Origin: Thermodesulfobacteriota bacterium
GTDB lineage: Bacteria > Desulfobacterota > Binatia > Bin18
Assembly: GCA_964291405.2 (NCBI GenBank)
Contig: OZ219926.1
Span: 1,408,001 to 1,472,000, forward strand
Direction: 5' to 3'
Length of the DNA stretch: 64,000 bases
In this document: in pieces, positions 10,856-48,895 of the stretch
Numbering within the stretch: the stretch's first letter is position 1
How the letters are laid out: each line of letters opens with the position of its first letter
The notes under the pieces: generated by a model
Told to the model about the DNA's origin: nothing
What the model saw: the letters and a program-made list of their open reading frames with translations, nothing else
Database searches by the model: none
Made by a program: the position numbers and the translations under genes

Positions 10856-11074
10856 ATGTCTGCGACCGAAATCATCTTTGAAATCACCGAAGACGAGTTG
10901 GACGGCGGATATTGTGCCAGCGCGCTGGGATATGGAATACACACCCAGGGCGACTCACTCGAAGAAATCCGCCGTAATGTCAAGGAAGCCGTTGACTGCT
11001 ATTTCGACGACACCATGCCACGGCCCAAGGTGATTCGCCTCCATTTCGTACGCGACGAGCTTCTGGTGGCATGA
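10856..11074 (+). CDS. hicB: Short HicB-like antitoxin
   Basis: GGYCASALGYGIHTQGDSLEEIRRNVKEAV; stop overlaps hicA start (ATGA). Confidence 0.8.
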   Translation: MSATEIIFEITEDELDGGYCASALGYGIHTQGDSLEEIRRNVKEAVDCYFDDTMPRPKVIRLHFVRDELLVA

Positions 11075-19293: not shown

Positions 19294-19992
19294 TCAGGCG
19301 TCGTACAGTTCGGCGTTACGTTGGGCCGCGGCTTTCAGTTCGTCGTCGCTGTAGTCGAAGCGTGGCTTGCCCGCAGGGACGCACAGGCCGCGCTGTACGG
19401 CCTCGCGGGCTTCGACGCGTGCGAGCCAGGCGGTCAGGTGGGTGAGGTCCGAGACATCGACGTTGGCCCACTGATACGCGCGCGCCCACGGGAAAGTGGC
19501 GATATCGACCATCGAATATTCGCCGCAGAGATACTCCTGGTCACGGAGCGCGTCATTCAAGACGCATAGCAGACGTTTCGATTCCGTGACGTAGCGCTCG
19601 ATCGCATATTCGTCGACAATGCCTTTGGGTGCCGCGATGCGCTGAAAAAACATGGCCTGCCCGAGCATCGGGCCGATCGCGCTCATCTGGAACATGAGCC
19701 ACTGCATGGCCTGGTGACGCAGCTGGGGATCGGTCGGCCAGAGCTTGCCGCTCCGCTCTGCAAGGTAGAGCAAGATCGCTCCCGATTCGGCCAGTACGAA
19801 GTCGTCATGGTCATGGTCAACGATGACGGGAATACGTCCATTCGGATTGAGTTTGAGAAACTCCGGGGTCTTCTGTTCATTTTTGTTGAAGTGGAGATAC
19901 TCCACGTCGTAATCGATGCCGAGTTCTTCAAGGGCAATAGAGGCTTTCCACCCGTTCGCGGTCGGGGCGGTATACAAGGTGATTTCGCTCAT
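19294..19992 (-). CDS. Glutathione S-transferase, YfcG/Ure2-like
   Basis: TAPTANGWK, LNPNGRIP, ESGAILLYLAE, QWLMFQM. Confidence 0.92.
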   Translation of the reverse strand: MSEITLYTAPTANGWKASIALEELGIDYDVEYLHFNKNEQKTPEFLKLNPNGRIPVIVDHDHDDFVLAESGAILLYLAERSGKLWPTDPQLRHQAMQWLMFQMSAIGPMLGQAMFFQRIAAPKGIVDEYAIERYVTESKRLLCVLNDALRDQEYLCGEYSMVDIATFPWARAYQWANVDVSDLTHLTAWLARVEAREAVQRGLCVPAGKPRFDYSDDELKAAAQRNAELYDA

Positions 19993-20198
19993 AGGTCTGG
20001 TCCTCAAGATGTATAGAGAGTCGCGGAGCAAGTGGATGTATTTGCTCCGGTGAGCATGGTTCCAAAAAATGCCGAGAGAAACAACCGGCTGAGCAGTCAC
20101 GGCAATTTCATGATTGCCATTCGTTCATGACGGCCCTACAGTTCGGATGAGCAGAATTTCAGCTTTGAACGGATACTATTGGCCGCAAAGGAGATGCT

Positions 20199-25051: not shown

Positions 25052-26881
<1,830 letters not shown>

Positions 26882-26893
26882 ACGAGGAATACG

Positions 26894-27646
26894 ATGCAAC
26901 CTATCCTCTTGTATGGCGTGCCGTTTTCGCAGCCGGTGCGCGCGGTCATGTGGCTGATGCTGTATAAGCGGACGCCGTTTGAAATGGTCCTGATCAACCC
27001 TGGCTCAAAAGGGGAAACCGGGAGCCGCAACCCGGCCTATCTGGCCAAAAATCCCGGCGGGACGATTCCCACGATCGAAGAGCCGGACACTGGCTTTGTG
27101 CTCAGCGAGGCGCACGCCATCATGTGTTATTTGAGCAATACGCACGGCTGGGAAGACGTGTATCCGACGGATTATCGGCTACGCGCCAAGGTAGACTGGT
27201 ATTTGCATTACCACCACCGCAATGTCCGCGACGCCTCCGTCGGACTGGTCGCACCGAAGATCCGCAAGGATCTGAATATCCCGGACGTCATTCAACAAGC
27301 CGCACACGCGACCCTGACGAAGGCACTCCACGCCTTGGAGTCGAGTTGGCTGGCGGAATCCCGCTATTTGATGGGCGAACAACTCACGCTGGCCGACTTT
27401 GCCGCATACGTGGAGATCGGACAGTTGCAGCCGGGTTTTACCAACGTCTACGATTTCGCGCCCTTCCCCAACGTGCGACGTTGGTTAGACGAGATGAAAC
27501 GCGTTGACGGGCACGACGACGTGCACGTCGTGCTGGCGGAACTCGGCGATATCAGTGGCGAGCCACCGACCATGGAGGCGATCAGGAACGCGAACAAAAA
27601 CGCGCTCAGGGTCTTGAAGGCAAAACTGAGAGAATTGACACCATGA
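26894..27646 (+). CDS. Glutathione S-transferase (theta-like)
   Basis: FSQPVRAV, NPGGTIP, SEAHAIMCYL, LTLADF. Confidence 0.88.
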   Translation: MQPILLYGVPFSQPVRAVMWLMLYKRTPFEMVLINPGSKGETGSRNPAYLAKNPGGTIPTIEEPDTGFVLSEAHAIMCYLSNTHGWEDVYPTDYRLRAKVDWYLHYHHRNVRDASVGLVAPKIRKDLNIPDVIQQAAHATLTKALHALESSWLAESRYLMGEQLTLADFAAYVEIGQLQPGFTNVYDFAPFPNVRRWLDEMKRVDGHDDVHVVLAELGDISGEPPTMEAIRNANKNALRVLKAKLRELTP

Positions 27647-28785
27647 TGGAACCCCAGGGATACTGTGCGGACGCGTTCGCAGCCGTTCACGAGGCATTTC
27701 AGGAGAACTTTGCGACGGGCGAGGAGCTGGGCGCCAGCGCGTGTGTCGTCCACGACGGAGAAGTGGTCGTTGATCTGTGGGGGGGCTCCTCAGGGCCGAG
27801 TGGCGAGTCCTGGCAGCAGGACACCATCGTCAACGTATACTCCACCACCAAAACCATGGCCGCGGTCTGCATGTTGATGCTCGCCGACCGCGGTCTGATC
27901 GATTTCGACGCTCCGGTTGCGCGCTACTGGCCGGAGTTCGCTCAGAACGGCAAGGAGAGTGTCCTGGTTCGCCATGTGATGAGCCACTCGGCAGGGTTAT
28001 CGGGTTTCGACTCACGCGTCGAGATCGAGGAACTCTACAACTGGGATGATATCTGCGGCAGGTTGGCCCGCCAGGCACCCTGGTGGGAGCCCGGGACTGC
28101 CTCGGGATACCACGCCATTACGCAAGGCTATCTGCAGGGAGAAATCCTGCGCCGGGTCGACGGCCGCAGTCTGGGCACGTTCTTTCGCGAGGAGGTCGCG
28201 ACCCCGCTTAACGTCGATTTTCACATTGGGCTGGACACCCAACACGATGGACGCGTGGGTGAGATGGTTCCTCCTTCGGCGACCATGGACCAGATGCCGG
28301 GCGATCCGGATTCGATTGCCACGCGGACCTTTCGGTCTGCCGCGTTGACGGGCCGCGAGCCACAGACGCGCGCGTGGCGTGCGGCGGAGATTCCGGCCGC
28401 AGGAGGGATTGGCAATGCACGGGCCGTCGCCCGCGTGCATGGGGCACTGGCTGCGGGCGGCGCGCTTGACGGCGTCCGGCTGATGGCCCCTGAAACGGTA
28501 GCAGTGGCACAACAACGGCAGACTAATGGTAAGGATCTCGTGCTCGACGTGTGGATGCTGTTCGGCATGGGCTTTGGCTTGATGAACCCGCGGATTCCGT
28601 TTACGCCGAGCCCCGGCGCCTTCTACTGGGGCGGCTGGGGCGGGTCCATTGCCGTGGTTGACCCCGATACCCGCACTTCGATCGCCTATGTGATGAACAA
28701 AATGGGCGAAAGCACGCTGGGAGATCAGCGCTCGGCGAGGATTATCGCGGCGACCTATGCCTCACTGAAACAGGAAGGCCGGTGA
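27643..28785 (+). CDS. Beta-lactamase-family serine hydrolase (family VIII esterase)
   Basis: STTK (SxxK), HSAGL, WEPGTASGYH, WGGWGGS. Confidence 0.92.
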   Translation: MMEPQGYCADAFAAVHEAFQENFATGEELGASACVVHDGEVVVDLWGGSSGPSGESWQQDTIVNVYSTTKTMAAVCMLMLADRGLIDFDAPVARYWPEFAQNGKESVLVRHVMSHSAGLSGFDSRVEIEELYNWDDICGRLARQAPWWEPGTASGYHAITQGYLQGEILRRVDGRSLGTFFREEVATPLNVDFHIGLDTQHDGRVGEMVPPSATMDQMPGDPDSIATRTFRSAALTGREPQTRAWRAAEIPAAGGIGNARAVARVHGALAAGGALDGVRLMAPETVAVAQQRQTNGKDLVLDVWMLFGMGFGLMNPRIPFTPSPGAFYWGGWGGSIAVVDPDTRTSIAYVMNKMGESTLGDQRSARIIAATYASLKQEGR

Positions 28786-29690
28786 TGACCCAAGCAGTAG
28801 GGCCTAATCCGAACTACCGCTACGAGCCCAAGCCCGTTGATGAAATCGTTGTCAGGGCGTTCAACTTCGACTTTCCCGACGATCTCGACCCCAAGTGGGC
28901 AAAGAACTCGGTGGTCAGATCGCATATGTTCAACGGCCTTTCGTTGACCATGCCGTATCTTGAACCCTATTTGATCAAGTCGATCCGGCAAGCGCTGCCG
29001 CTTATTCGGGAGGAACGTCTTCGAGAAGACATCAAAGGGTTCTGCGGCCAGGAGTCCCGCCACTACGCGTGTCACCGGCGGCTCAACGAACTCATCAAGA
29101 AAAACGGCTATCCCGAGCTGACCGAAATCGAGCAGCGTATGGAGCGGTCTTACGCCCGTCTGCAAACGCGCAGTCTGGAGACCCAGCTCGCCTACAACGC
29201 CGGGTTCGAGACAATGACGGCGGGCTTTACCCGCTGGATGACCACAAAACGCTGGGCGCTGTGGGGCGGCAATTGCCCGTGGGTTTCCTCGTTCTGGGTG
29301 ATGCATATGGTAGAGGAAACGGAGCACAAAACCGTTGCCTATGATACCTATATGGCCTGTTCGGGCCGCTCTCTGAAGCGGGCAATCGGCGTTCTGCACG
29401 GCAGTTTTCATGTGCTCGGCTACGGCCTCATCGCCATGCGGGAAGCGCTACGCAAGGACGGTCTGTGGGGCCAGCCCGGTACGATGCTCGAACTCGCGAG
29501 AGAGATGGGCACCCTCCTCTGGAACGTTGGTCCCTCTCTGTTACGCGCTATGCGCCCAGGGCACAACCCGCGTTACGACGAAGACCCGCAGTGGCAAAAG
29601 GACTGGGTCGCGGCACACAAACACTTAGCGCCTGACGCACCCATTCCCTTGCTTGATACCTCCGACCCGGACGTTCCGGTGCCGTTCTGA
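28782..29690 (+). CDS. Predicted metal-dependent hydrolase / ferritin-like EXXH protein
   Basis: MPYLE, GQESRH, AGFE, HMVEETEHKTVAYD motifs. Confidence 0.82.
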   Translation: MMTQAVGPNPNYRYEPKPVDEIVVRAFNFDFPDDLDPKWAKNSVVRSHMFNGLSLTMPYLEPYLIKSIRQALPLIREERLREDIKGFCGQESRHYACHRRLNELIKKNGYPELTEIEQRMERSYARLQTRSLETQLAYNAGFETMTAGFTRWMTTKRWALWGGNCPWVSSFWVMHMVEETEHKTVAYDTYMACSGRSLKRAIGVLHGSFHVLGYGLIAMREALRKDGLWGQPGTMLELAREMGTLLWNVGPSLLRAMRPGHNPRYDEDPQWQKDWVAAHKHLAPDAPIPLLDTSDPDVPVPF

Positions 29691-29796: not shown

Positions 29797-30786
29797 TTAA
29801 CCCAGATGGGGGAGGACGTCGGCGGCAAAGCGCTGCATAGACCCCCGCGACACAGCGCGATCCATGCCGGGGAAATGGAAGAACAGCACGAGTTCATCTA
29901 TGCCCGACTCAGCTTCAAACGCTTTGATCTCATCGAGCACCTTTTGTGGTGGGCCGGTGAAGAAATTACTCAGGTCACGGAATCCATCAGACGTATTCGT
30001 GCGGTCTTCTGGTTTGTCATTGGCTTCATGCATCCACTTGGCGTAATAATCGACCTGGTAGTTGACGTGCGGCCAGACTTTATCTAACTCGCTGTCGTCT
30101 TTTTCGGTCACATAGCACGAACGCAGGATGCGGACCTGGCCGGGCTCGCGGCCGAGGTCGGTACAGGCCGTCCGGTAAATATCAATGTCTTCGGTGTTGC
30201 CAATGGGCAGAAAATGACAGCCCATGCGTGCCACGCGCTGAATGCCTTTTTCGCTCCGCGCCCCAACCATCAGGGGTGGCCCTCCAGGCTGGGCTGGGGA
30301 TGGCGTGACCATAATGTCGGTGTAGTTCCAAAACTTCCCAACATGAGAAAATGTTTCCCCAGACCACGACTTGCGGAGGATGTCGACACCTTCGGTCAGC
30401 GCTGAGCCTCGTCGCTTGTGATCCTTTTCAAAGCCTGTAAACTCGCCTACGCGATAGCCCTGGCCCAGGCCAAGAATGAGCCGGCCTCGCGAAATGAGAT
30501 CGACGACCGCTGCGTCTTCGGCGACACGAACGGGGTCGTGCAGGGGGAGGAGTAAGACGAAGGTGCCGAGACCGATGCGCTGTGTTCTGGCAGCCACCGC
30601 TGAGAGGACGGCGAGCTGGGAGGGGAGATAGCCATCCTCAAGAAAATGGTGCTCCGTCGTCCACGCGGTATCAAAGCCGAGCTCTTCAACGGCAACCATA
30701 TCGTCGATGGTATCGTTATACAGGTCGGCGTAGGGTTGCGCCCATTGGGGCGGATTCCGAAAGTCAAATAAACAGCCTGTCTTCAT
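29797..30786 (-). CDS. LLM-class flavin-dependent oxidoreductase
   Basis: WTTEHH, PVRVAEDAAVVDLISRGRLILGLGQGYR. Confidence 0.9.
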   Translation of the reverse strand: MKTGCLFDFRNPPQWAQPYADLYNDTIDDMVAVEELGFDTAWTTEHHFLEDGYLPSQLAVLSAVAARTQRIGLGTFVLLLPLHDPVRVAEDAAVVDLISRGRLILGLGQGYRVGEFTGFEKDHKRRGSALTEGVDILRKSWSGETFSHVGKFWNYTDIMVTPSPAQPGGPPLMVGARSEKGIQRVARMGCHFLPIGNTEDIDIYRTACTDLGREPGQVRILRSCYVTEKDDSELDKVWPHVNYQVDYYAKWMHEANDKPEDRTNTSDGFRDLSNFFTGPPQKVLDEIKAFEAESGIDELVLFFHFPGMDRAVSRGSMQRFAADVLPHLG

Positions 30787-31002
30787 TACCTTGCTCCTTT
30801 CGTCAGGGCGAAAATGTTTGGTCTTGCTTGAATAGACGAGGTCTCGTGTCCACGACGGGCCGGTGGGCCTACATGTGAGCGGGAGTCGTCAGAATAAGAC
30901 GGGAATCCTCCAGCCCATCATTCCGATAATGGACAATGGCCCGATGGTCGGGGTTCTGCACCAGTTTCCCTTTCTTCCAGCGACCTCACACGATGCACGG
31001 CC

Positions 31003-32094
31003 TTATCCGAGTGTATTCACCGCAGATGGGAACGTGTTGATCCCCAGCGCTTCCCGAAAATCCGCGGTGGGTTGCACGACCATCGCATCGACGCTGATGC
31101 CAATCGCATTGGCGACGCGGTCCAGCATGCTGAAGTTGCCGCCGATGATCGACGCCGTCGTGACCGCCTCGGGACCTAATCGCTCGGCAATGGCATCCCG
31201 TGCGGCCGCCAGTTCTGCGGTATCGGGTTTCATCAAAGCACCGGCGAATCTCACGAGTTCGCACCCGTGTTCCACCCCGCTGTCAATACGTGCATCGATC
31301 GCGCCAGCTAACTCGTAGCTTCGATCGTGGGCTTTTCCGCTCTCCCGGAGCAGATGGGCATGCCACGTGGTTCAGTAGAAACACAGGTTCTGTTCCGAAA
31401 CCTTGGTTGCGACGAGTTCTATCTGTGCTCGCGAAAGTGCGTGGTCTGATGTGGCGTGAAAATTGAGCAAATGCTCAGCTCCGAAATACTGTTGACTGAC
31501 CAGGTTAATCACGCGGCGGGCTTCATCCGGGACGAGGCTCACGGCGCGAAAAATATTCCCCGCCGGACTTTCTCCATATAACGATTCGGCTAATGCGCCA
31601 CCTGCCGGAGCGCTGGGGACACTCGCGGTAAAGAATCCCTCATCGACGGCTTCGGCGGGGCGTTCGAAAGAGGGGAGCGTATCGTCGGCGAGCTCCGGTA
31701 ATTTTCGGGGTGGTATGCCAAGACCGCGGGCAAAGACGTCAAGATTGGAGAGTCGCGACACCAGCGAGACGATTTCAACATACGCGCCCTCGCTCACACC
31801 CTGGGCTTGGATGTTCTGGCAAAACTTGCGATCGATGTTTTGCGAATCAACCGCCACCGCCCGTGCCAATCGCACTGCCGCGTCAGGGAGTTTGGCCTGG
31901 GCGACCAGCTTCTCATCGTCGACCGATTCTTGTAAGCCCTGTTCGCATTGAGCGATACGCGCAGTGGCGGCAATGGCGGTTCTCTGTGCGGCGGTACCCC
32001 ACGTACCGCCGCGAGCATAGGACTGCATTTCGTCGACATGTAGGGTTTCAACCGTAGGAGAAACGGGGTAGCGCGAATCTGCGTAAAGCGGCAT
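31003..32094 (-). CDS. AhpD-related probable selenoprotein (363 aa; Sec at TGA 31372-31374; CFYU motif)
   Basis: 240-aa ORF ends LSRAQIELVATKVSEQNLCFY-TGA; the frame continues without stops (TTWHAHLLRESG...) into the 90-aa ORF to TAA at 31003; SECIS-like hairpin follows the TGA. Confidence 0.82.
31326..31371 (-). promoter_or_regulatory. Putative bacterial SECIS element
   Basis: mRNA after UGA: lower stem CGUGG/CCACG, upper stem UCUGCUC/GAGCGGA, loop CGGGA beginning 24 nt after the UGA. Confidence 0.65.
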
Positions 32095-32274
32095 TGGAAT
32101 GAACCCTCCTCTCTCGAAATTGTACTTCGCTTATCAGTCATTTCAATAAACGAGGAAATGCCGTCGTGCAAATGCGCTCGTGTTGGGTTTACCTCTTGAC
32201 AAGCCGCTCTACGGGTCGACAATGCCTCTCAAGAGGGCGAACCCCGACAACAACAGAGGACGGAGGAGCTTACC

Positions 32275-33072
32275 ATGAGCACAATCTTGCGTTACCTTCA
32301 CCACCCCGCATCACAGCCGTGCCGCGCAGCGCATCAGTTCATGCTGGAGAACGACATTCCCTTTGAACTCGAGTTGGTCGATATCACCACCGATATCAAC
32401 GAGCGGCCGGAGTTCCGGGACAAGTACAACCCGACGGGGCAGGTGCCGATTCTCGTGGATGGTGACTTTGTAATCTGGGAGAGTGCGGCCATTGCCTTCT
32501 ACTTGAACGAGAAGTTTGAATGTCCCGCCCACTGGTTCGGGCGCGACACCCGGCAAAGAGGGCTTATTCAGCAGTTTCTGCAATGGTACGCCTACACGCT
32601 CCGCCTCGGCGGAGGCGCGTTCCACTGGACGATCTTCGCCCCAATGATCTACGGCTATGATAAGGACTTTTCCGCGGAGATAAAGAAAGGGCGCTATATT
32701 CTGTATGAGTCCCTTGACCTCCTAGAGACCTATTGGCTCAAAGACCGTGCTTATGTGTGCGGCGACGAGATCAGCTATGCGGACCTAGCCGCCTACCAGG
32801 ACCTCGTTTCCCATGATGCCGGGAAGATCATTCCGGACGGGGTGTGGCAGGAGCACCCTAAGGTCAGGGCATGGTTCGAGACAGTGGCCGCACGTCCGCA
32901 CGCAAAGACGGTAAGTGCGTGGCAATATGAGAACGTTGGAAAAATACTGAACGACGGTGTGAAATTTGAGTTTAGGCGGAAAACCGCGGTCTTAAAGGGA
33001 ACAGAGGTCCACAGCGGCCACAACCACGGCATTCTTTACGCCGGCCAGGACGATAGCTACTTAAAGGAGTAG
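32275..33072 (+). CDS. dcmA: Dichloromethane (dihalomethane) dehalogenase, theta-class GST
   Basis: Near-continuous match to recalled DcmA, especially Methylophilus DM11 type: LRYLHHPASQPCRA, YNPTGQVPILVDG, WYAYTLRLGGGAFHWTIFAPMIYGYDKDF, HAKTVSAWQYENV, RKTAVLKGTEV.SGHN; catalytic Ser retained. Confidence 0.9.
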   Translation: MSTILRYLHHPASQPCRAAHQFMLENDIPFELELVDITTDINERPEFRDKYNPTGQVPILVDGDFVIWESAAIAFYLNEKFECPAHWFGRDTRQRGLIQQFLQWYAYTLRLGGGAFHWTIFAPMIYGYDKDFSAEIKKGRYILYESLDLLETYWLKDRAYVCGDEISYADLAAYQDLVSHDAGKIIPDGVWQEHPKVRAWFETVAARPHAKTVSAWQYENVGKILNDGVKFEFRRKTAVLKGTEVHSGHNHGILYAGQDDSYLKE

Positions 33073-33200
33073 GAGGCCACCGGAGGCACCACCTAGGAGT
33101 CCTGTGGTTGAGAGAGCGATAGAAAAATGTCTTGATGGTTATCGTAGCGACTTATGCCTCACTGAAACGGTGACATTGTTGCCATAACCCGGAGGATATA

Positions 33201-33866
33201 ATGGCGACAATCGATCTCTATGAAGCGATGCGGACCTTACGGGCCGTACGGCGGCTACGCCCGGACCCTATTCCAGAAGACGTGCTCTACCGGGTCCTAG
33301 AAGCCGCAACCTGGGCACCGACTGGCGGCAACCGCCAAGCTTGGCGGATCATTGTGGTCAAAGACCCTGCTCGCAAACAACGTCTCGGCGAATTATATAA
33401 GCAGGTCACACTTCCCTATCTCAAATCGTATATGGAGCGGTTGGACGGTGCCTCTGAGGAGGAACGGAGAAAAGCCGAGCGGACAATCCGCGCCAGTAAC
33501 TATCTGGTGGAACATTTTGGCGAGACGCCGGTGCTGCTGGTCGTGTGTTTTAACCCGGAAGGGCTTGCCGTCACCGATGCGAAGCTTGACAGACAGTCCG
33601 TTGTTGGCGGCGGCTCGATCTACCCGGCGGTAGAAAACCTCCTGCTTGCCTGCCGGGCCGAGGGTCTGGGGTGTGTGCTTACGACGCTGCTGTGTATGGA
33701 AGAACCGGCAGTTCGCGAACTCTTGGGGATTCCCGATCCCTGGGGAACGGCGGCTGTCGTGCCGATTGGCTATCCCGTCTTGCGAGGGCATGGGCCGATC
33801 TCGCGGCGGTCGGTAGAAGAATTGGCGTTTGCGGATGCCTGGGGAACCCCGTTTTTCCGGGAGTAG
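33201..33866 (+). CDS. Nitroreductase family protein
   Basis: RAVRR...APTGGNRQAW...AVENLLLACRAEGLG...VPIGYP. Confidence 0.92.
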   Translation: MATIDLYEAMRTLRAVRRLRPDPIPEDVLYRVLEAATWAPTGGNRQAWRIIVVKDPARKQRLGELYKQVTLPYLKSYMERLDGASEEERRKAERTIRASNYLVEHFGETPVLLVVCFNPEGLAVTDAKLDRQSVVGGGSIYPAVENLLLACRAEGLGCVLTTLLCMEEPAVRELLGIPDPWGTAAVVPIGYPVLRGHGPISRRSVEELAFADAWGTPFFRE

Positions 33867-34045: not shown

Positions 34046-34384
34046 TCACATGGATCTACCGAGTACGTCACGCTGCGGAGTGACCTGAAAGCGGACGCCC
34101 TCGTGTTTCTGTAATGCCGCTACAAGCTCAAAGAGGTTGCTGGCGGCTGGATTGCCCTTGGGGCCAAGCATACGCATTAAGCTCGTATCTTTCTTGCCCG
34201 TCACACGGGCGAGTTTCTGGAAGCCCATCGTCGCATTGATGTAGTCCCGCAGAAGAATCTTCCCCGTCGCAAGATCCCCCCTGAGAAAACACTCAATGGC
34301 TTCCGTCAACAATCCTTCGCGGAACTCCGGATCACGCTGCGCACGAGCCATGACCGTGTCTTTAAAATTACGAGTGAGTGCCAT
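34046..34384 (-). CDS. Addiction module antitoxin (HTH, HigA-like)
   Basis: MALTRNFK...LRDYINATMGF..LA..TG....SLMRMLGPKGNP; downstream of toxin. Confidence 0.85.
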   Translation of the reverse strand: MALTRNFKDTVMARAQRDPEFREGLLTEAIECFLRGDLATGKILLRDYINATMGFQKLARVTGKKDTSLMRMLGPKGNPAASNLFELVAALQKHEGVRFQVTPQRDVLGRSM

Positions 34385-34385
34385 C

Positions 34386-34715
34386 TTATAAACCCTTTCT
34401 CTGACTCGCTTTATAAGCAGCCCAGAGCTTCTGAGCCGCAGCAATGTCTTGTCGTTGTCGTTTCTTCGTCCCTCCCCCTAGCAGGAGGATTACCTGCGTC
34501 CCTACCCTGCCGAAATAGACTCGGTAGCCTGGCCCGAAATCAATCCGGCATTCCGAAATGCCTCTACCAATACTTTTAGTATTGGAGAGGTTCCCTGCTT
34601 CCATTCGGGCAATAGCGGTCCGCACTTTCAGAGCAGCAGGAGCATGCAAACGATCGAACCAGCGCGTAAAAGGACTGATGCCATCGTCGGTCTGGTATTC
34701 CTGAATCTCAATCAC
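34386..34715 (-). CDS. RelE/ParE-family (HigB-like) toxin
   Basis: SPFTRWF...ECRIDFGPGYRVYFG...LLLGGGTKKRQRQDI. Confidence 0.9.
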   Translation of the reverse strand: MIEIQEYQTDDGISPFTRWFDRLHAPAALKVRTAIARMEAGNLSNTKSIGRGISECRIDFGPGYRVYFGRVGTQVILLLGGGTKKRQRQDIAAAQKLWAAYKASQRKGL

Positions 34716-41297: not shown

Positions 41298-41513
41298 ATG
41301 GCGCCAAAAGCCAATCACACGGACACCGCACGTTTTCGTCCTCGTACCAAAGTGTCTCTACAGAAAACCCTGCGTGCGCTTGGCGGGCGTGAGATCGGCG
41401 AGGATGAGTCTTTGCGCGAGGGTGAACATTACGGACTCAGCATTGAGGGGCGGCGGTTTGTGTTTCGTGACCCTACTGCGTTCAACCGTTTTAAGGAGGA
41501 GTTACGCGTATGA
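41298..41513 (+). CDS. Small hypothetical protein, possible Cys-less YHS-like fold
   Basis: Strong RBS (GAGGAG); stop overlaps next ATG (ATGA). Confidence 0.7.
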   Translation: MAPKANHTDTARFRPRTKVSLQKTLRALGGREIGEDESLREGEHYGLSIEGRRFVFRDPTAFNRFKEELRV

Positions 41514-42388
41514 ACGATAAAAAAACGGACAAGGGGATTTTGGTGCGGAAGGTGCAATTCGAGTTTCCCGAGGACTTCAAACCTTACTGGAACTCCACCA
41601 AACCGGTATTCAGTCAGTTGGCCAATGCTGCCTCAATGTTCTTACCGTACATGGAACCGTTTATTATTGATTCTATTCGGAAAGCGCTCCCCCACATCAC
41701 CGACCCCGCCCTGCGCGAAGAAGCCAAAGCCTGGATGGGCCAGGAAGCCCAGCACTTTAAACAACACCGGCAGTTTAACGAGGCGTTGATTGCCGCCGGC
41801 TATCCGCAGCTCCGCGAGCGGGAAAAACAGATAGAGCAGGAGTATCAAACACGCGGCAAACGCTCCCTCAAATACCAAGTCGCCTACACCGCCGGCTTTG
41901 AAGTCATGGCTCTGTCGATCGCGCATACGCTGCTCGAACAGCGTGAATATTTCTTTGGCGAAGCCGACCGGCCTGTAGCTTCTATGTGGCTCTGGCATTT
42001 GATCGAGGAAATCGAGCACAAGAATCTCGCCTTTGATGTGTATCAACATGTATATGGCGGGCACTGGTACCGCGCCTACGGCATTGTGTGTGCCCTTATC
42101 CATCAAGTGGGCATGATGCGGGGCACGTATATCGAGTTACTTAAAGCCGATGGACTATGGGGGAAGTGGAAGACGCACTGGGAAATTAAAAAGATTGCCT
42201 TCCGCTTATTCGTCTCCTTCCTCCCACGGACAATCCGTTACGCCATGCCGGGCCATCATCCGTCTCGTGTCGCCAATCCGGAATGGATGAAGGAGTGGGT
42301 CGCGCTCTTCGACAAAGGGGAAGTTGGGCTGACTAAGCTCGATACTACCAAGATGGGCTTGTCGCCAAAGGATATGTTGCCTGCGTGA
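41510..42388 (+). CDS. Predicted metal-dependent hydrolase / ferritin-like EXXH protein
   Basis: LPYME, GQEAQH, AGFE, WHLIEEIEHKNLAFD; paralogue of 28782-29690. Confidence 0.85.
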   Translation: MNDKKTDKGILVRKVQFEFPEDFKPYWNSTKPVFSQLANAASMFLPYMEPFIIDSIRKALPHITDPALREEAKAWMGQEAQHFKQHRQFNEALIAAGYPQLREREKQIEQEYQTRGKRSLKYQVAYTAGFEVMALSIAHTLLEQREYFFGEADRPVASMWLWHLIEEIEHKNLAFDVYQHVYGGHWYRAYGIVCALIHQVGMMRGTYIELLKADGLWGKWKTHWEIKKIAFRLFVSFLPRTIRYAMPGHHPSRVANPEWMKEWVALFDKGEVGLTKLDTTKMGLSPKDMLPA

Positions 42389-42582
42389 TGGATGGTCTGG
42401 CAGAAATCATTACCGCCCGAGGCGAAGGCTTCGAGCAGACCATGCAGCATACGAGCGCCTGGTTTCAGGAACATCTGCCGGTACGCTAAGGCGAACCATA
42501 CAGCTACGAGGTATCACACGGTGGGTTGGACGATGTTTCGATACTCTACCCGGACATGAAGGAAGAGAAAGGAAGCTGAGCA

Positions 42583-44328
42583 ATGCACGATCTTATCATT
42601 CAAGGTGGAACGATTGTTGATGGAACCGGACAGCCGAGTTTCACCGGCGATGTTGCAGTGACGGATGGCAAGGTTAGCGGGGTCGGCTCGGATTTGGGCC
42701 GAGCGAAACGGACATTAAAGGCGGACGGACTGATAGTGGCCCCTGGCTGGGTGGATGTGCATACCCATTACGATGGTCAGGTATCGTGGGACCCGCTGCT
42801 GACTCCATCTTTATGGCATGGAGTGTCGACGATCGTGATGGGCAACTGCGGCGTGGGCTTTGCACCGGTTGTACCCGAGCGTCGCGAAGAACTGATTGGC
42901 ATGATGGAGAGCGTTGAGGATATTCCGCGCCAATCCTTGACCGCTGGCATCGATTGGCAGTGGGAAACCTTCCCGGAATATCTGGACGCGCTCGACGCTA
43001 TTCCCCGCACGATTGATGTTGGCACGCAGATACCGCATATCCCCTTGCGTCTGTACGTCATGGGCGAGCGGGGAGCTGGCAAAGAACCAGCCACACCAGA
43101 AGATATCGAACAAATGGCGACCATGACTCGGGCGGCTATCGAAGCCGGTGCGCTAGGCTTCTCCACTTCTCGGACTATGGTGCATGCTACGCCGGAAGGC
43201 GTGCCCGTCCCCGGTACCTTTGCCAGTCCGGACGAGTTGTTGGGTATTGGTCGCGGGATTACCCAAACCGGACGCGGCCTCATGGAAGTCGTCTCAGATG
43301 CCGTACTTGGACAGAACATTGATAGCGAACTGGGCTGGATGCAGGAGTTGGCGGCAACTGGCTGCCCGGTGACATTTCTACTCGCACAGACGAATCCACA
43401 GCCTCATGTCTGGCGGGATATTTTGCAGCGCTGTGAAGCGGCCACGAACAGCGGGGCGCGGATTATTCCGCAGGTCTTTGCCCGACCGGTTACCATTCTG
43501 TTCAGTTTTCAAGGGGAAAACCCATTCCAATATTTGCCGAGCTATGCACCGCTCAAGGACCTCCCGCATGAAGAAAAAATGCAGGCCCTCCGCAACCCTG
43601 ATGTGCGGAGGCGTTTACTAGCTGAGGAGGACCCAAACACGGCTGGTATGTCTATCTTGTATCAACAGGAATCCACGTGGCAGATGACCTACCCCATAGG
43701 CCAGCCGCTCAACTACTTCCCCGATGGAGACAATAACGTCGCTGCCATAGCCGCCCAGCGCGGCTGCAATCCGCGCGAGGTTGTGTACGACCTGTTGTTA
43801 GAGGACAACGGGCGGGCCTTCCTCATGTATGCCATTGCCGGCTATGCCGAGCAGAGTCGTGACCCGTTGTACGAAATGCTGACCCATCCCCTGACCGTCA
43901 TGGGTGGGAGTGACTCGGGTGCTCATATGCGCACGATCTGCGATGCCAGTGTCCAGACCTTTATGCTGATCGACTGGGTACGGGACCGCACCGAAGACGA
44001 TCCGTACCATCTGCCGATTGAACTTGTGGTCAAGAAGCAGAGCCGCGATACAGCCCGGCTGTTCGGCATGCACGATCGGGGCACGTTAGAGCTCGGCATG
44101 AAGGCTGATTTGAACCTCATAGACCTGGGCGCGCTCCGCATTGAGAAGCCGGAAATGGTGCACGACCTGCCCGCCGATATGCCCCGCCTGATGCAGACGG
44201 CCCACGGTTACGTGGCCTCGTTGGTCAGTGGAGAGATTGTACAAGAAAACGGCAAAGCAGCCGGAGCCCGTCCGGGGAAAGTCGTCAGAAGCGGCACGTG
44301 TGCACAACAGCAGCGGGTGGCTGCTTGA
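42583..44328 (+). CDS. N-acyl-D-amino-acid deacylase family amidohydrolase
   Basis: PGWVDVHTHYD, GNCG, SDSGAH, DRG...G.KADLN. Confidence 0.92.
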   Translation: MHDLIIQGGTIVDGTGQPSFTGDVAVTDGKVSGVGSDLGRAKRTLKADGLIVAPGWVDVHTHYDGQVSWDPLLTPSLWHGVSTIVMGNCGVGFAPVVPERREELIGMMESVEDIPRQSLTAGIDWQWETFPEYLDALDAIPRTIDVGTQIPHIPLRLYVMGERGAGKEPATPEDIEQMATMTRAAIEAGALGFSTSRTMVHATPEGVPVPGTFASPDELLGIGRGITQTGRGLMEVVSDAVLGQNIDSELGWMQELAATGCPVTFLLAQTNPQPHVWRDILQRCEAATNSGARIIPQVFARPVTILFSFQGENPFQYLPSYAPLKDLPHEEKMQALRNPDVRRRLLAEEDPNTAGMSILYQQESTWQMTYPIGQPLNYFPDGDNNVAAIAAQRGCNPREVVYDLLLEDNGRAFLMYAIAGYAEQSRDPLYEMLTHPLTVMGGSDSGAHMRTICDASVQTFMLIDWVRDRTEDDPYHLPIELVVKKQSRDTARLFGMHDRGTLELGMKADLNLIDLGALRIEKPEMVHDLPADMPRLMQTAHGYVASLVSGEIVQENGKAAGARPGKVVRSGTCAQQQRVAA

Positions 44329-44387
44329 TGACGAGACTCAAAATAATCAATACGCACCAAAACAACAGGGAGAAAAAGGAGGACCCT

Positions 44388-45527
44388 ATGCAGTTCGGTA
44401 TGTTGTATGAGATGGAAACGCCTCGCCCGTGGAATAAACGGAGTAGCTATAACGTCTACCACGAAGCCTTGGCCCAGATTGAGCTGGCCGATAAACTTGG
44501 CTTCGACTATGTGTGGGAAGTTGAACACCACTTTCTGGAGGAATATTCACATAGTCCAGCTCCCGAAGTGTTCTATGGTGCGGTATCTCAGCGAACCAAA
44601 AATATCCGCATTGCCCACGGGGTACGTCTCCTGCCGCATCGCTTTAACCACCCCATTAAAATTGCTGAACAGGCTGCTGTGCTCGATATTCTGAGCAACG
44701 GCCGTATGGACCTGGGCACGGGCCGCTCAACCACGGCGCAGGAGCTTGACGGCTTTGGTGTGGATTATGATCGGACGCGACTGGAAGTCCGTGAGGCGTT
44801 GGATGTGATTGTCAAAGCCTGGACTGACGAGATTCTGGAATATAAAGGCGAGACTATTACTGTACCGCCACGCATGGTGGTGCCCAAACCCATTCAGGAG
44901 CCGCATCCACCGATGTGGATGGCCTGTGTAGCGCCGGACAGCTACGAGATGGCAGCCGACCGTGGACTCGGCGTCCTGAGCTTTAGTTTCAATTGGGACG
45001 GTGTGCAAGCCTCAATTGACGCCTATCGTCAAGCGTGTCCGAAGCGTTCGGATCAAGTTGTCAAAGTCGTGAATGAACGGTTCGCCGGTTTGGTTATTTG
45101 TCATGTGTCAGGAACCAAAGACGAAGAGACGACAGGTATCGAGGGCGCCCGCTGGTTTCTGCACAATATCGCGAAACTGTTTGAGCCGCTGATGGTAAAA
45201 AACCAGTTGTACTCCTACGAATACCTGCGCGCCCTGTTCGACCTAGGGGCGGACGCCAATGATCTCAGCGATGCTGAGATCAAGGCACATCCCATGGTCA
45301 TCGTAGGCAACCCTGATGAAGTCAATCGCAAGCTGGAAAAGTTTCATGCGTCGGGTCTCGACCAGATTATCTTCTTCAAGCAGGCGGGTCGTATTCCGCA
45401 CCAGAACATCATGCGCTCGATTCGCCGGATTGGAGAGTCTGTCATTCCATATTTCAATCCCAGCAAGGCGGTTGTGACTGAGGTTGACCCGCAGTGGGCC
45501 GAAGAAAAGGTCGCAGTCGGACAATAG
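44388..45527 (+). CDS. LLM-class flavin-dependent oxidoreductase
   Basis: WEVEHHFLEEYSHSPAPE, LDILSNGRMDLGTGRS, PKPIQEPHPPMW. Confidence 0.92.
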   Translation: MQFGMLYEMETPRPWNKRSSYNVYHEALAQIELADKLGFDYVWEVEHHFLEEYSHSPAPEVFYGAVSQRTKNIRIAHGVRLLPHRFNHPIKIAEQAAVLDILSNGRMDLGTGRSTTAQELDGFGVDYDRTRLEVREALDVIVKAWTDEILEYKGETITVPPRMVVPKPIQEPHPPMWMACVAPDSYEMAADRGLGVLSFSFNWDGVQASIDAYRQACPKRSDQVVKVVNERFAGLVICHVSGTKDEETTGIEGARWFLHNIAKLFEPLMVKNQLYSYEYLRALFDLGADANDLSDAEIKAHPMVIVGNPDEVNRKLEKFHASGLDQIIFFKQAGRIPHQNIMRSIRRIGESVIPYFNPSKAVVTEVDPQWAEEKVAVGQ

Positions 45528-45640
45528 CAGCGCGCCAAGCGACCGGTCGGTTGGACGCCACACGGCCATCACACAGGTCTCCGCGTATTCTCTTTTGGAG
45601 CCGGTGTGGCCGTACTTGAGGTGACATACAGGAGAGAGAT

Positions 45641-46792
45641 ATGGCAAAGGCACAAAGCGGGCTGATTGTCGATGCAGACGGGCATGTCTTAGAGCCCTTG
45701 GATACATGGCAGAAGTATATTGACCCTCAATACCGAGACCGGGCCGTGCGTATGGAGCACGATGAGAACGGCTGGGAAGTATTGCTGTTCGATAACAAGC
45801 CGTGTGAAGTCGCCCGTGGCACGCTCGGCGCGATTGGCGGTGTGGGCTCAGATGCCGAAGAACTCGAAGCCTTTTTCACCCCAGGCAAGCGCACGTATGC
45901 GGATGGCGCGCCGCTGGGCAGTTACGACCCGAAGGCGCGTATCAAAGTCATGGATGAAGAGCAGATTGATGTTGCTCTACTGTATCCGACTATTGGGATC
46001 TTCTGGGAAGGCTGGATCACGGAAGCCAAGCTGGCCGCAGCGTATACGCGGGCGTATAACCGTTGGATTATAGACTTCTGCAGCGACCATCCCAAACGGC
46101 TCTTTCCGATCGCCCATATCTCTTTGCTCGATCCGGAAGGTGCGGCAGATGAAGTAAAGTGGGCCAAGGAGCAGGGCTGTGTCGGCGTGTACCTGTCCCC
46201 GGATATGCCTGCCCGAGGTGGAAAACATTTTGATGATTCGGCCTTTGTCCGTTTTTGGGAGACCGTGCAGGATTTAGACATGCCGGTCGGGTTTCATGTG
46301 ATAGTGCGCGATCAACCGTCATTTCAAGAATGGCTCAAGCCGGATGCGTCAGCCGGGTTGTTTACCTTTGCCTTCCTGGCCATTGATGTCATGGCCGCCT
46401 TCACCCAGATGATGTCGCTCGGCATGTTTGAGAAGTACCCACGTCTGAAATGTACTGTCCTCGAATCCGGTGCGAACTGGATCTCGGCCTGGCTTGACCG
46501 ACTCGACCATAAGTATCGCCCCATGGCCAGCCGGACCAATCTCAAAATGCCACCGAGTGAGTACTTCTATCGTCAATGCCTGGTGTCGGCAGATCCTGAT
46601 GAGACGCTGACCGCCAAGGTCATCGAACATATTGGTTCGGACTATTTTCTGTGGGCGTCAGACTATCCGCATATTGATGCCGACTTCGGTGTAGTCAAAG
46701 AACTCAAGGAGCGCATTGCGCCGTTGCCCGTGACAGATCAGCGCAAGGTGCTGGGCGAAAATGCAATCCGTTTCTATGGATTGAACGTGTGA
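45641..46792 (+). CDS. Amidohydrolase_2 family protein
   Basis: DADGH, LYPT, AYNRW, GFH, WASDYPH.D. Confidence 0.92.
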   Translation: MAKAQSGLIVDADGHVLEPLDTWQKYIDPQYRDRAVRMEHDENGWEVLLFDNKPCEVARGTLGAIGGVGSDAEELEAFFTPGKRTYADGAPLGSYDPKARIKVMDEEQIDVALLYPTIGIFWEGWITEAKLAAAYTRAYNRWIIDFCSDHPKRLFPIAHISLLDPEGAADEVKWAKEQGCVGVYLSPDMPARGGKHFDDSAFVRFWETVQDLDMPVGFHVIVRDQPSFQEWLKPDASAGLFTFAFLAIDVMAAFTQMMSLGMFEKYPRLKCTVLESGANWISAWLDRLDHKYRPMASRTNLKMPPSEYFYRQCLVSADPDETLTAKVIEHIGSDYFLWASDYPHIDADFGVVKELKERIAPLPVTDQRKVLGENAIRFYGLNV

Positions 46793-46839
46793 GATAGGGA
46801 CATCCGGTTCGAATTCCTGACTGGCGAAGGAGGAGCAGC

Positions 46840-47262
46840 ATGGCTGGCCGATTAGCCGGAAAAGTAGCAGTGGTGACTGGCGGCAGTTCAGGTATAGGCC
46901 GGGCTACCGCGCAGATTTTTGCCCGTGAAGGGGCCAAGGTTGTTGTGGCCGATGTCGGAGTTGAGGGCGGCGCAGAAACCGTGCGCCTGATTACCGGCTC
47001 GGGTGGAGAAGCAACATTTGTCCAAACCGATGTCGGGCAAATGGAAATCCCGGTGCCGATGACTCAGGCATTAGCCACAGACGGCAAGCTGTATCGGGTC
47101 ACAGCAGACGGCCAACCCCATCTCGTGGCCGCAGGCTTTATCAATCCAACCGGCGTCCTGGTTGTTGATGACGCCGTGTGGGTCTCGGATATCAATGGGG
47201 ACTTTATTGCGGGTAAGCGTGAGCTGCCGGAAGGCTTTGTGGTGAAAGTGCAGGCGCAATAA
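46840..47262 (+). pseudogene. In-frame chimera: SDR N-terminus joined to an unrelated beta-propeller-like C-terminus
   Basis: First about 65 aa match the SDRs at 40843 and 52546 up to QTDV; the remainder (GKLYRVTADG...AAGFINPTGV....VWVSD) is not SDR-like; no YxxxK. Confidence 0.7.
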
Positions 47263-47324
47263 CACGACGAAACAGGGGGTTGAAAGGGTAAGGATGAGCG
47301 CCTTGTGAAAAGGAGGGCTTAGGT

Positions 47325-47657
47325 ATGTCAACGCGCGAAAAGGTGTATGCGGTTCTGGTTATCGTGGGAGTTCTCCTCCCCATGTACTACAACGTCCAGT
47401 ACATGGGCGCAGGTGGGAATCTTCTGGTTGATTTTTTCACCGTGCCGATGGAAAGCGCGGTGACAGCCTCGCTCCTGTTCGACCTGTTAGTCGCGTTTAT
47501 CGCGTATAACGTTTGGTTATTCTCCGAGGGACGAACGCTGGGGACGCGTAATTTTGTTATCTGCCTCGCGGTCTCATGGCTGGTGGCATTTTCCGCCGGT
47601 CTACCGTTATTCCTGTTGCTCCGTGAGCGGCAGAGACGGTTTGCTGAGAGCGCTTAG
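47325..47657 (+). CDS. DUF2834-like membrane protein
   Basis: SLLFDL...EGR.LG...VAFSAGLPLFLLLRER. Confidence 0.75.
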   Translation: MSTREKVYAVLVIVGVLLPMYYNVQYMGAGGNLLVDFFTVPMESAVTASLLFDLLVAFIAYNVWLFSEGRTLGTRNFVICLAVSWLVAFSAGLPLFLLLRERQRRFAESA

Positions 47658-47680
47658 ACTCGTTAAGGAGGGGTTTCCGT

Positions 47681-48868
47681 ATGGACTTTAATCCACTCTC
47701 CCCGGAGGTAACTGCCAACCCGTATCCGTACTACACCGAGCTGAGGAACAAAGCCCCGGTCATTTGGCTTGAGACTTTTCAGTGCTGGGCGCTGAGTCGG
47801 TATGCTGATGTGGACTTTGCCCTGCGGAACCCGCAAATTTTCTCATCTTCGGTATTTACGGCTGAAGCCATGGGCGATCTGAATCCCGTCCCAGAGGTAC
47901 CGTGGATTCTCGATATGAATCCTCCCGACCATACCCGGCTGCGGAAGCTGGCGAATAAGGGCTTCGCACCGCGCCTGATCCGGGCACTGGAGCCGCGTGT
48001 GCGGGCGACTACCCAAGAACTGATCGGAGCCCTGCGCAGTCAGCCGGAGGGTGATCTCGTTGCAACCCTCTCCGGACCGCTCCCAACGACCGTGATCGCG
48101 GAAATGCTCGGTGTCGAGCCTGAACGGCGCGATGACTTTAAGGTCTGGTCGGATGACGTGGTCAGAGCAACAAGTCGTCCGACTGACGAGACCGAGCGGG
48201 CTCAGATTCGCAAGAGCGAAGCTGAACTCCGGGCCTATTTTGAGCAGATGATAGAGCGCCGACGAACGGAGCCTGGAGAGGACGTGATTACTGCTCTGGT
48301 GCAAGCCGAAGAGGAGCACGATATGCTGTCTTCAAAAGAGATTCTCGCTTTGGCCGTCTTACTGCTGTTAGCCGGGAATGAGACCACGACCAACTTAATT
48401 GGAAATGCAGTTCTTACCTTACTCGACCACCCTGATGAATTGGCAAAAGTTCGTGCGGATCGTTCGCTCGTGCCGGCGCTAGTCGAGGAAGTCCTGCGTT
48501 ATAATTCGCCCGTTCAGGTCATTTTTCGTCGGACGGCCCAGGATGTGGAGATGGAAGGCAGTAAGATTCCAGCCGGACAGAACGTCTTTTTACTATTGGG
48601 ATCGGCAAACCGCGATGAGCGTCAATTCCCCGAGCCAGATCGTTTTGACATCGCCCGCAATCCGCAGGATCACGTCGCCTTTGGCTATGGCATCCATTAT
48701 TGCTTGGGCGCACCGTTGGCTCGGCTGGAAGGCCGGAATGCGTTAGAAGCGCTGCTGTTTGACTGTCCCCCTTTTCGTCTTGCAGTTGAACGGGTCGATC
48801 CGATTGCGTCGCTCATTGTCCGGGGCCCACAGACTTTACCGCTCCGGTTTGATACAGCAGGAGCGTAG
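47681..48868 (+). CDS. Cytochrome P450
   Basis: AGNETT, EEVLR, FGYGIHYCLG. Confidence 0.95.
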   Translation: MDFNPLSPEVTANPYPYYTELRNKAPVIWLETFQCWALSRYADVDFALRNPQIFSSSVFTAEAMGDLNPVPEVPWILDMNPPDHTRLRKLANKGFAPRLIRALEPRVRATTQELIGALRSQPEGDLVATLSGPLPTTVIAEMLGVEPERRDDFKVWSDDVVRATSRPTDETERAQIRKSEAELRAYFEQMIERRRTEPGEDVITALVQAEEEHDMLSSKEILALAVLLLLAGNETTTNLIGNAVLTLLDHPDELAKVRADRSLVPALVEEVLRYNSPVQVIFRRTAQDVEMEGSKIPAGQNVFLLLGSANRDERQFPEPDRFDIARNPQDHVAFGYGIHYCLGAPLARLEGRNALEALLFDCPPFRLAVERVDPIASLIVRGPQTLPLRFDTAGA

Positions 48869-48895
48869 AGTCTGAGCAAAAAAAGGAGGAATACC

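Follow-up and report, generated by a model that had tools for sequence, protein, structure and literature searches.

The dichloromethane dehalogenase DcmA is a textbook pollutant-degrading enzyme that has been spread by horizontal transfer. In the accessible text of the published accounts, DcmA is described as conserved and tied to dcmRABC, a cluster known from Methylorubrum DM4 and Hyphomicrobium and carried by all DcmA strains studied; in strain DM4, dcmA is transcribed divergently from dcmR, the gene for a MEDS-type regulator, and the two share the motif GATC(C/G)ATAGCCT. The 64,000-nucleotide stretch analyzed here, referred to as the window (positions 1,408,001 to 1,472,000 of contig OZ219926.1, assembly GCA_964291405.2), comes from an uncultured Binatia bacterium of the Bin18 lineage; DcmA has been noted before in one Bin18 Binatota genome, in the part of that report available. 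The window carries a gene for a DcmA-type glutathione S-transferase (GST) whose divergently transcribed partner, in the place occupied by dcmR in the classical clusters, is a gene for an AhpD-related selenoprotein (see Table 1 for the coordinates). Together, the two genes make up a module that is conserved in uncultured Binatia and has a counterpart in some Gammaproteobacteria.

Both protein families were already known, and it is the linkage between them that is new. The selenoprotein belongs to the family reported as “hypothetical protein 1” in the Sargasso Sea selenoproteome (Zhang, Fomenko and Gladyshev 2005) and now represented by the NCBIfam model NF041238, so that one partner in the pair put forward as a candidate new system by a preceding reading of the DNA from its letters alone (the sequence-only reading) comes from a family that is not new. 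The window protein is a full member, with the CxxU motif, a similar length, a selenocysteine insertion sequence (SECIS)-like hairpin, and no structural difference; what sets it apart is a conserved DcmA-like partner, found in one clade. The function of the family is given as unknown in the available text of both the 2005 paper and a 2026 review, and in the latter the string “dehalogen” occurs nowhere. A search of the literature found no paper tying DcmA to an AhpD-type selenoprotein. An orphan family that has been without a function since the 2005 selenoproteome thereby gains, through its clade-defining partner, a first testable context.

A DcmA-type GST facing a selenoprotein gene

The GST is 72% identical, at 100% coverage, to the UniRef entry “Dichloromethane dehalogenase, Methylophilus leisingeri DM11” (P0014), and the nearest solved structures are those of human GSTT1 (E value of 3e-28) and GSTT2. 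With the DM11 enzyme it shares the theta class and the serine motif P-A-S-Q-P-C, which is invariant, Ser13 included, in 61 aligned sequences; this N-terminal serine is presumably catalytic, as in the DM11 enzyme. The segment W-Y-A-Y-T-L-R-L-G-G-G-A-F-H-W-T-I-F-A-P-M-I-Y-G is identical in the two proteins, and the segment WYAYTLRLGGGAFHWTIFAPMIYG is common to both but differs in a clade of related GSTs of 248 to 256 amino acids. In a FastTree phylogeny of 136 rows, displayed with a midpoint root that is arbitrary, the window GST and the other Binatia GSTs share with DM11 DcmA a clade of 29 members with 98% support, the sisters of which are a clade of 285- to 289-residue proteins and a clade of 268-residue proteins. 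Because of this closeness to the DM11 enzyme, the window GST is expected to dehalogenate dihalomethanes to formaldehyde. The sequence-only reading had called it a DcmA-type dehalogenase, and that assignment stands.

The two genes, both intact, are arranged head to head, as described in that reading, with their start codons bounding a gap of 180 bp. The resemblance to classical dcmA includes both the divergence from the neighboring gene and the TTGACA −35 box, which is reported for dcmA promoters in the accessible text and is also present in the window. A scan for sigma70-like promoters yields one match for each gene, and the block that lies between the two −35 boxes is a candidate operator. 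The TTGACA block and the GACAATGCCTC block are invariant across 14 aligned Binatia intergenic regions, and the conserved promoter matches agree with the co-regulation of the GST and selenoprotein genes that the sequence-only reading had suggested. As for DcmR itself, its box (GATC(C/G)ATAGCCT with up to 2 mismatches) has 7 matches in the window, compared with 8.7 expected, and none in the gap, and no MEDS/dcmR-type domain was detected among the window open reading frames (ORFs) that were scanned. The replacement of dcmR by a selenoprotein gene, as originally described, is thus what the locus displays. The dcmR-dcmA-dcmB-dcmC embedding is not seen either, as judged from the lack of a MEDS-type regulator among the scanned ORFs; dcmB and dcmC were not searched for. 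In contrast to the classical dcmA hosts, the host here is an uncultured Binatia bacterium, and no transposases were found flanking the gene. A plasmid collection contained no match for either the GST or the selenoprotein.

The selenoprotein is encoded on the minus strand in a frame (32094 to 31003) that is open over 363 codons apart from a single in-frame TGA, codon 241, which falls into the motif C238-F-Y-U241-T...H245. When TGA is translated as selenocysteine (Sec, U), the codon context reads NLCFY-U-TTWH and the read-through product around it is SEQNLCFY-U-TTWHAHLLRESG. The protein matches NF041238 ([quoted passage not shown]) with 301.5 bits, compared with a cut-off of 175, and the match spans the TGA, aligning residues 13 to 356 with model positions 3 to 356 of 357; the AhpD-like Sec protein of the sequence-only reading is accordingly a single gene. 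Relatives were collected by a family-alignment scan of species-representative genomes, from which the best 80 of 99 loci were kept (designated by L-numbers below). The homologous codon is TGA in all 80 of these loci, within C-[FVYT]-Y-U-T-x-x-H, and in all of them the frame beyond it stays open and conserved for a further ∼120 codons (122 in the window), at identities down to 30%. None of the 90 database homologues of the selenoprotein reaches beyond the TGA codon (coverage of 66% or less), and 103 of the best 150 cluster representatives retrieved with a full-length profile terminate exactly at C-x-Y. Among the same best 150 there are at least 7 full-length Cys forms, with C-x-Y-C-T at the Sec position.

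A SECIS-like hairpin follows the UGA at a fixed distance, and its assignment is backed chiefly by conservation in register. In an ungapped alignment of 75 nucleotides around the TGA from all 80 sequences (alignment A2), the loop reads C-G-K-G-N, with its G invariant, and 91% of the cells in the stem form standard pairs, compared with 29 to 61% when the 3′ partner column is slid. Compensatory changes are seen at the closing pair 36-42 (C-G to U-A in one case) and at the outermost pair 31-47 (from C-G to A-U in four cases and to G-C in one). The 6-bp stem was defined by a hand-set structure string and pair counts, not by folding software, and the window has no Rfam matches at gathering thresholds.

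If the TGA were a true stop, the product would be a 240-residue protein followed by a dead remainder. Such a reading would be in line with the fold of the window's own post-UGA stretch, which is no better than that of shuffled sequences (z score of −1.43, not significant), and with the results of RNAalifold, which predicts just 3 pairs from the 80 sequences, covariation in the stem being sparse. Likewise, neither tRNAs, tRNA-Sec included (ARAGORN), nor Sec-decoding genes were found within the 64-kb window. However, a dead remainder is very hard to reconcile with 122 codons past the TGA that are open and conserved in 80 of the 80 loci down to 30% identity, with a family model that runs across the TGA, with Cys forms at the very same position, and with a conserved hairpin at a fixed distance from the codon. 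The true-stop alternative therefore has almost nothing left in its favor and, all evidence combined, the predicted reading of the TGA as Sec is secure.

The AF2 model of the selenoprotein, built on a full-length alignment of 57 sequences (alignment A3; pLDDT of 96, pTM of 0.94), is all-helical, with an extra N-terminal domain. A search of the Protein Data Bank (PDB) with the profile of this alignment retrieves the AhpD of Deinococcus radiodurans (6k40, E value of 5e-16, residues ∼159 to 337), followed by 2oyo, 3c1l, and 2pfx and, weakly, Mycobacterium tuberculosis AhpD (1gu9); at 19 bits, the match to the Pfam CMD domain falls short of the cut-off of 23. A Foldseek comparison with the PDB also puts 6k40 on top (TM score of 0.73 on target), lists two structures of the debrominase Bmp8, 6ohi and 6ohj, in third and fourth place (TM score of 0.67), and matches Sestrin-2 across both domains. 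Across the 57 sequences of alignment A3, residues E226, C238, Y240, U241, T242, and H245 are invariant. Four of these (E226, C238, U241, and H245) align with E...C..C...H of 6k40, with Sec in place of the second Cys, and the residues are spaced as in AhpD (Glu-12-Cys-x-x-Cys-4-His). Provided that the stretch is ungapped, profile positions 229, 241, 244, and 248 correspond to residues 118, 130, 133, and 137 of 1gu9 and would have the roles that these residues play in the mycobacterial enzyme. Since the AhpD catalytic set (Glu226, Cys238-x-x-Sec241, and His245) is present, the protein is most likely a selenol/thiol oxidoreductase; it does not replace DcmR as a regulator. Compared with the AhpC/AhpD systems of the M. 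tuberculosis type and of D. radiodurans (6k40), with which it has the fold and the Glu...Cys-x-x-Cys...His set in common, the selenoprotein is twice as long owing to its extra N-terminal helical domain, carries Sec for the second Cys, and has a GST in the partner position.

Distant members of the family have a second C-x-x-C in the N-terminal domain (e.g., A-R-x-C-x-L-C, at a place corresponding in alignment A3 to window residues ∼47 to 56); the GST-linked clade and its gammaproteobacterial relatives retain at most the first of these Cys residues (C50 in the window).

Recurrence of the pair

When the window proteins are compared by tblastn with the 80 loci, a DcmA-like GST, 91 to 97% identical to the window one, is found in each of the 15 loci of the Binatia close clade (selenoprotein identity of at least 81%; L001 to L013, L026, and L034). 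There are thus 15 Binatia species-level genomes with close DcmA relatives, each of them paired with the selenoprotein rather than with dcmR. The pairs are divergent, with gaps of 153 to 218 bp, in 13 of the 15 genomes; in L004 and L007 the GST gene lies 2.5 to 2.7 kb away, separated from the selenoprotein gene by genes for a luciferase-like (LLM) oxidoreductase and another GST-like ORF. In the gammaproteobacterial metagenome-assembled genomes (MAGs) L014, L019, and L035, a GST with 52 to 56% identity is encoded directly upstream of the selenoprotein gene and on the same strand, and in L016 the C terminus of a GST is present up to the contig edge. In a FastTree phylogeny of the selenoproteins from the 80 loci, the 20 GST-paired loci all fall into a single 22-member clade of Binatota and Gammaproteobacteria with 100% local support. 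In the remaining 58 loci, no DcmA-like GST adjoins the selenoprotein gene, and L050 and L064 have distant GSTs only (28 to 32% identity, 2.7 to 9 kb away). As for metagenomic contigs, 15 of the 120 listed GST homologues each have a longest contig equal in size to that of one of the 90 selenoprotein homologues, in a comparison made by eye; several of these equal-sized contigs span just 3 to 8 kb, and one same-contig case has been verified, that of L014, whose GST is identical to P0064.

Because the pair recurs in all 15 Binatia close-clade loci and in 5 gammaproteobacterial ones, the adjacency of the two genes is not coincidental. The sequence-only reading had left room for a chance neighborhood in a mosaic region and had named a pairing unique to this genome, with genes that are not co-induced, as the outcome that would speak against a co-regulated unit; the pairing is not unique, and 20 of the 22 clade members have it. 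A milder version of the same idea is that the adjacency represents inherited synteny without functional coupling, having arisen by chance in a region rich in catabolic genes. The window is indeed dense with paralogous GSTs, LLMs, P450s, Baeyer-Villiger-type monooxygenases, and hydrolases, and the paired loci are mostly from closely related Binatia. Nevertheless, the pair is retained while its flanks vary, the wider synteny of the window being common to L001 to L003 and L005 only and the flanks differing in the other Binatia. Furthermore, the pair spans two phyla, exists in two gene orders, and reappears on small metagenome contigs that are independent of one another, and the promoter matches between the two genes are conserved, all of which makes uncoupled synteny a very improbable explanation.

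The age of the association may be gauged, within limits, from the GST tree. The 248- to 256-residue clade, which comprises the L014 GST and 14 of the 15 same-contig candidates, lies across the midpoint root from the window GST. Selenoprotein-linked GSTs are thus present on either side of this root in the DcmA-like tree, so that the pairing may predate the classical dcm cluster, a suggestion that depends on a root that is not established.

Several loci show departures from the common organization of these genes. The additional GST-like ORF found in L004 and L007 between the LLM and selenoprotein genes has weak Pfam matches. L025 (positions about 8747 to 11089) carries two tandem genes for AhpD-related selenoproteins, each with its own TGA in C-F-Y-U-T; the same Binatia genome has a GST-paired copy elsewhere on the same contig (L010). 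In the 226-residue protein P0199, a GST N-terminal domain of another type is fused to a segment that is 86% identical to selenoprotein residues ∼118 to 240 and ends at the C-F-Y of the Sec site, which points to either a rearranged gene or a mis-assembly. A 244-residue ORF upstream of the L014 GST gene was rejected as spurious, as it overlies a nitrile hydratase operon on the minus strand.

Possible functions of the pair

The family also has a second kind of partner, a peroxiredoxin-like (Prx-like) selenoprotein consisting of AhpC/TSA and DsbD_N domains and likewise containing an in-frame TGA (L052:8902-9963 and L035:6002-7096, both on the plus strand). In L052, L053, L054, and L071, this protein (W-U-P-P-C when TGA is read as U) is encoded directly upstream of the AhpD-related gene, and in L035 genes for the Prx-like Sec protein, the GST, and the AhpD-related Sec protein follow each other on one strand. 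Altogether, a Prx-like selenoprotein gene adjoins the AhpD-related one or is 0.9 kb away in 5 of the 80 loci; Prx-like matches with U-P-Y-C are found at greater distances, 2.7 to 7 kb, in L022, L025, and L029. These loci match the neighboring pairs of Prx-like and AhpD-like genes that have been noted in marine metagenomes, according to the available part of the published description.

The best explanation for the module, although one to which we would give slightly less than an even chance, is a glutathione-linked redox relay between the GST and the selenoprotein. It is rated likeliest because of the AhpD-like active site, the Prx-like selenoprotein partners, and the organization of L035, which joins all three genes. 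In Binatia, both genes would be transcribed from back-to-back promoters, and the GST would activate glutathione via its N-terminal serine. In the first step, the selenolate would attack an oxidizing or electrophilic atom, such as the oxygen of a hydroperoxide, yielding Se-OH; in the second, Cys238 would resolve the Se-OH to a selenenylsulfide; and in the third, the selenenylsulfide would be re-reduced by glutathione from the neighboring GST. The pair would then constitute a glutathione-linked selenium defense or turnover unit that operates beside the GST's own chemistry. The delivery of glutathione to a peroxidase by a GST has a precedent in pi-class GST and 1-Cys peroxiredoxin. We infer here that both proteins share a pathway, and likewise which way the electrons flow and what the substrate would be. 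If the selenoprotein is indeed a peroxidase partner, the pair would represent a new glutathione-linked selenium redox relay.

A number of observations weigh against such a relay or against a tight coupling of the two genes. There is no Prx-like gene in the window, nor does the AhpC-TSA Pfam domain have any match among its scanned ORFs, and in other loci the immediate upstream neighbors of the selenoprotein gene are diverse and include genes for PhyH dioxygenases, a Rieske oxygenase, an LLM, a CoA-transferase, esterases, and transporters. The sigma70-like matches in the gap are not enriched (2 found, compared with 1.8 expected in shuffled sequences). In three loci an intact selenoprotein gene is accompanied by a damaged GST gene: a premature TAG replaces an invariant Tyr codon in L019 (positions 1041 to 1829), a premature TAA and changed invariant sites are found in L035 (7100 to 7960), and L017 (900 to 1764) has a frame-shifted remnant. 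Damage to the GST gene thus affects 3 of the 20 paired loci, all three among the 5 gammaproteobacterial ones, which could reflect either gene decay or MAG assembly error. L015 and L020, which belong to the same clade, have no GST at all. Because the GST is broken, decayed, or absent in these members of the clade, the selenoprotein can do without it. Finally, a relative (72% identity) of a narrow-specificity dichloromethane dehalogenase would be a surprising partner if all it did was deliver glutathione, and a GST of the serine type has no need of a redox partner of its own. Some observations also weigh against the dedicated halomethane detoxification unit proposed in the sequence-only reading: the family is not new, has other partners elsewhere, and coexists with a broken GST in three loci.

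Deiodinases employ Sec for halogen abstraction, and the selenoprotein could likewise dehalogenate reductively, in the manner of Bmp8 or a deiodinase, and together with the GST would make up a pathway from haloforms to formaldehyde. The selenolate would take a halogen from a tri- or tetrahalomethane (e.g., CHBr3), leaving a dihalomethane and Se-X; Cys238 would turn Se-X into Se-S with release of halide; glutathione would re-reduce the selenenylsulfide; and the GST would convert the dihalomethane to formaldehyde. Bmp8, a thiol-dependent tetrabromopyrrole debrominase, shares the AhpD-type fold and comes close to true AhpD in the Foldseek ranking (TM scores of 0.67 and 0.73, respectively). In the accessible text of a review, it is described as a carboxymuconolactone-decarboxylase homologue in which the redox-active Cys pair serves reductive dehalogenation, bromine being removed as the cysteines become a disulfide. 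The option that the selenoprotein itself acts on organohalides, already raised in the sequence-only reading, would thus gain a precedent within the AhpD fold, as judged from the structural model. It would also suit a partner GST to which no known relative of a dihalomethane dehalogenase comes closer in kinship to that enzyme, the retention of Sec in 80 of the 80 loci, and the spread of the pairing over two phyla.

Still, a dehalogenase role for the selenoprotein appears unlikely. Bmp8 is Cys-based, has only ∼187 residues, and is encoded in a natural-product cluster. It shows no detectable sequence similarity to the selenoprotein (the 13 PDB sequences that the family profile matches at an E value of ≤1 do not include it), so that the similarity is one of fold only, and the structural match is general to the AhpD fold rather than specific to Bmp8. 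The other contexts of the family, with Prx-like selenoproteins, oxygenases, and transporters, are not halogen-related, no genes connected with halogenases or halocarbons were noticed in the vicinity, and the GST decays in some lineages in which the selenoprotein stays. Slightly more doubtful still is the broader scenario in which a selenium-dependent dehalogenase and a DcmA-type GST make up a haloform-to-C1 pathway of Binatia and marine Gammaproteobacteria, this being the ancestral setting of the dcmA of industrial dichloromethane degraders, from which the selenoprotein was later lost. Should the selenoprotein act on halocarbons, the pair would bear on the microbial turnover of natural bromo- and iodomethanes.

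DcmA turnover gives rise to reactive S-chloromethylglutathione, and a further possibility is that the selenol scavenges S-halomethylglutathione or repairs the alkylated or oxidized thiols that result from such turnover, making the pair a self-protection unit. The conserved adjacency, the DcmA type of the GST, and the strength of selenolate as a nucleophile would all be in keeping with such a role. We nonetheless rate it as improbable, and well behind a dehalogenase role, because there is no known catalytic route for the release of a Se-alkyl adduct from an AhpD-type CxxU site. In addition, no solved relative among the profile and Foldseek matches has such an activity, intact selenoprotein genes are found beside broken GST genes, and the classical dichloromethane degraders with dcmRABC clusters do without this selenoprotein, as far as their accessible descriptions go.

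Surroundings of the pair in the window

Table 1. Features of the GST-selenoprotein locus and its surroundings (window coordinates)
Feature	Position	Strand	Remarks
AhpD-related selenoprotein gene	31003..32094	-	363 codons plus stop; NF041238 match; N-terminal helical domain and C-terminal AhpD/peroxidase-related domain
TGA read as selenocysteine, codon 241	31372..31374	-	homologous codon TGA in 80/80 loci
SECIS-like hairpin	31337..31353	-	6-bp stem, loop CGGGA, start 18 nt past UGA
DcmA-type theta-class GST, 265 aa	32275..33072	+	Pfam GST_N and GST_C; Ser13 in P-A-S-Q-P-C
Divergent intergenic region, 180 bp	32095..32274		between the two start codons
GST promoter match	TTGACA 32196-32201, 16-nt spacer, GACAAT 32218-32223	+	sigma70-like scan
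Selenoprotein promoter match	TTGAAA 32146-32141, 16-nt spacer, TACAAT 32124-32119	-	sigma70-like scan
Conserved block, candidate operator	32167-32193		between both −35 boxes
Luciferase-like (LLM) oxidoreductase gene	29797..30786	-	accessory, not always present; Pfam Bac_luciferase, 7e-50
Nitroreductase-family gene	33201..33866	+	downstream of GST; Pfam Nitroreductase, 3e-27
Direct repeat copy 1, 35 nt, imperfect	28737..28771	+	inside 3′ end of beta-lactamase-family gene
Direct repeat copy 2, 35 nt, imperfect	33134..33168	+	spacer after GST gene

The LLM gene, which the sequence-only reading had placed downstream of the selenoprotein gene, is indeed located there, 216 bp away. Orthologues with 96 to 99% identity follow the selenoprotein gene at a distance of no more than 163 bp in L002, L003, L009, L012, L013, and L034 and lie upstream of it in L004 and L007, and there is none in L001 and L005. 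The nearest NCBIfam model is TIGR03619 (F420_Rv2161c), with a score of 155 bits, below the cut-off of 166.9. The type member of that LLM family is encoded, according to the accessible part of the description, in the Rv2159c-Rv2160c-Rv2161c operon of M. tuberculosis together with a CxxC peroxidase-type protein of the AhpD/CMD family; that operon differs from the window locus in having neither a GST nor Sec, and the window LLM stays below the Rv2161c-family cut-off. AhpD-like proteins and LLMs may be in recurring association. The nitroreductase-family gene downstream of the GST gene is found, with 96 to 98% identity, only in L001, L002, L003, and L005.

The sequence-only reading had placed the pair within a block bounded by repeats. 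An imperfect 35-nt direct repeat is indeed present and encloses genes for a metal hydrolase, the LLM, the selenoprotein, and the GST, but as evidence of a mobile block it is weak. Its two copies are 86% identical, the similarity stops at their ends in a pairwise alignment, the exact 16-mer core occurs in only one of the 80 loci (L002), and there is no transposase among the window ORFs that were scanned. The repeat as the boundary of a mobile element was therefore rejected; more likely, it is what remains of a 3′ end of the beta-lactamase-family gene. The block itself is variable, since the LLM is missing from it in L001 and L005.

The window as a whole is rich in LLMs, P450s, Baeyer-Villiger-type monooxygenases, and hydrolases. 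It contains three GST genes (19297-20100, 26894-27646, and 32275-33072), and sets of paralogous enzymes recur along it (25052-29690 compared with 41510-50101 and 60173-61999), the recurring types being PF10118 metal hydrolases, beta-lactamase-family esterases, P450s, and Baeyer-Villiger-type monooxygenases. An ORF on the plus strand (30863-31318) that overlaps the part of the selenoprotein gene encoding the C-terminal region is spurious. The stretch that separates the nitroreductase gene from a P450 gene encodes, on the minus strand (34046-34715), a RelE/ParE-family toxin (TIGR02683, 99 bits) that overlaps a 132-residue ORF without family matches, which is likely its antitoxin.

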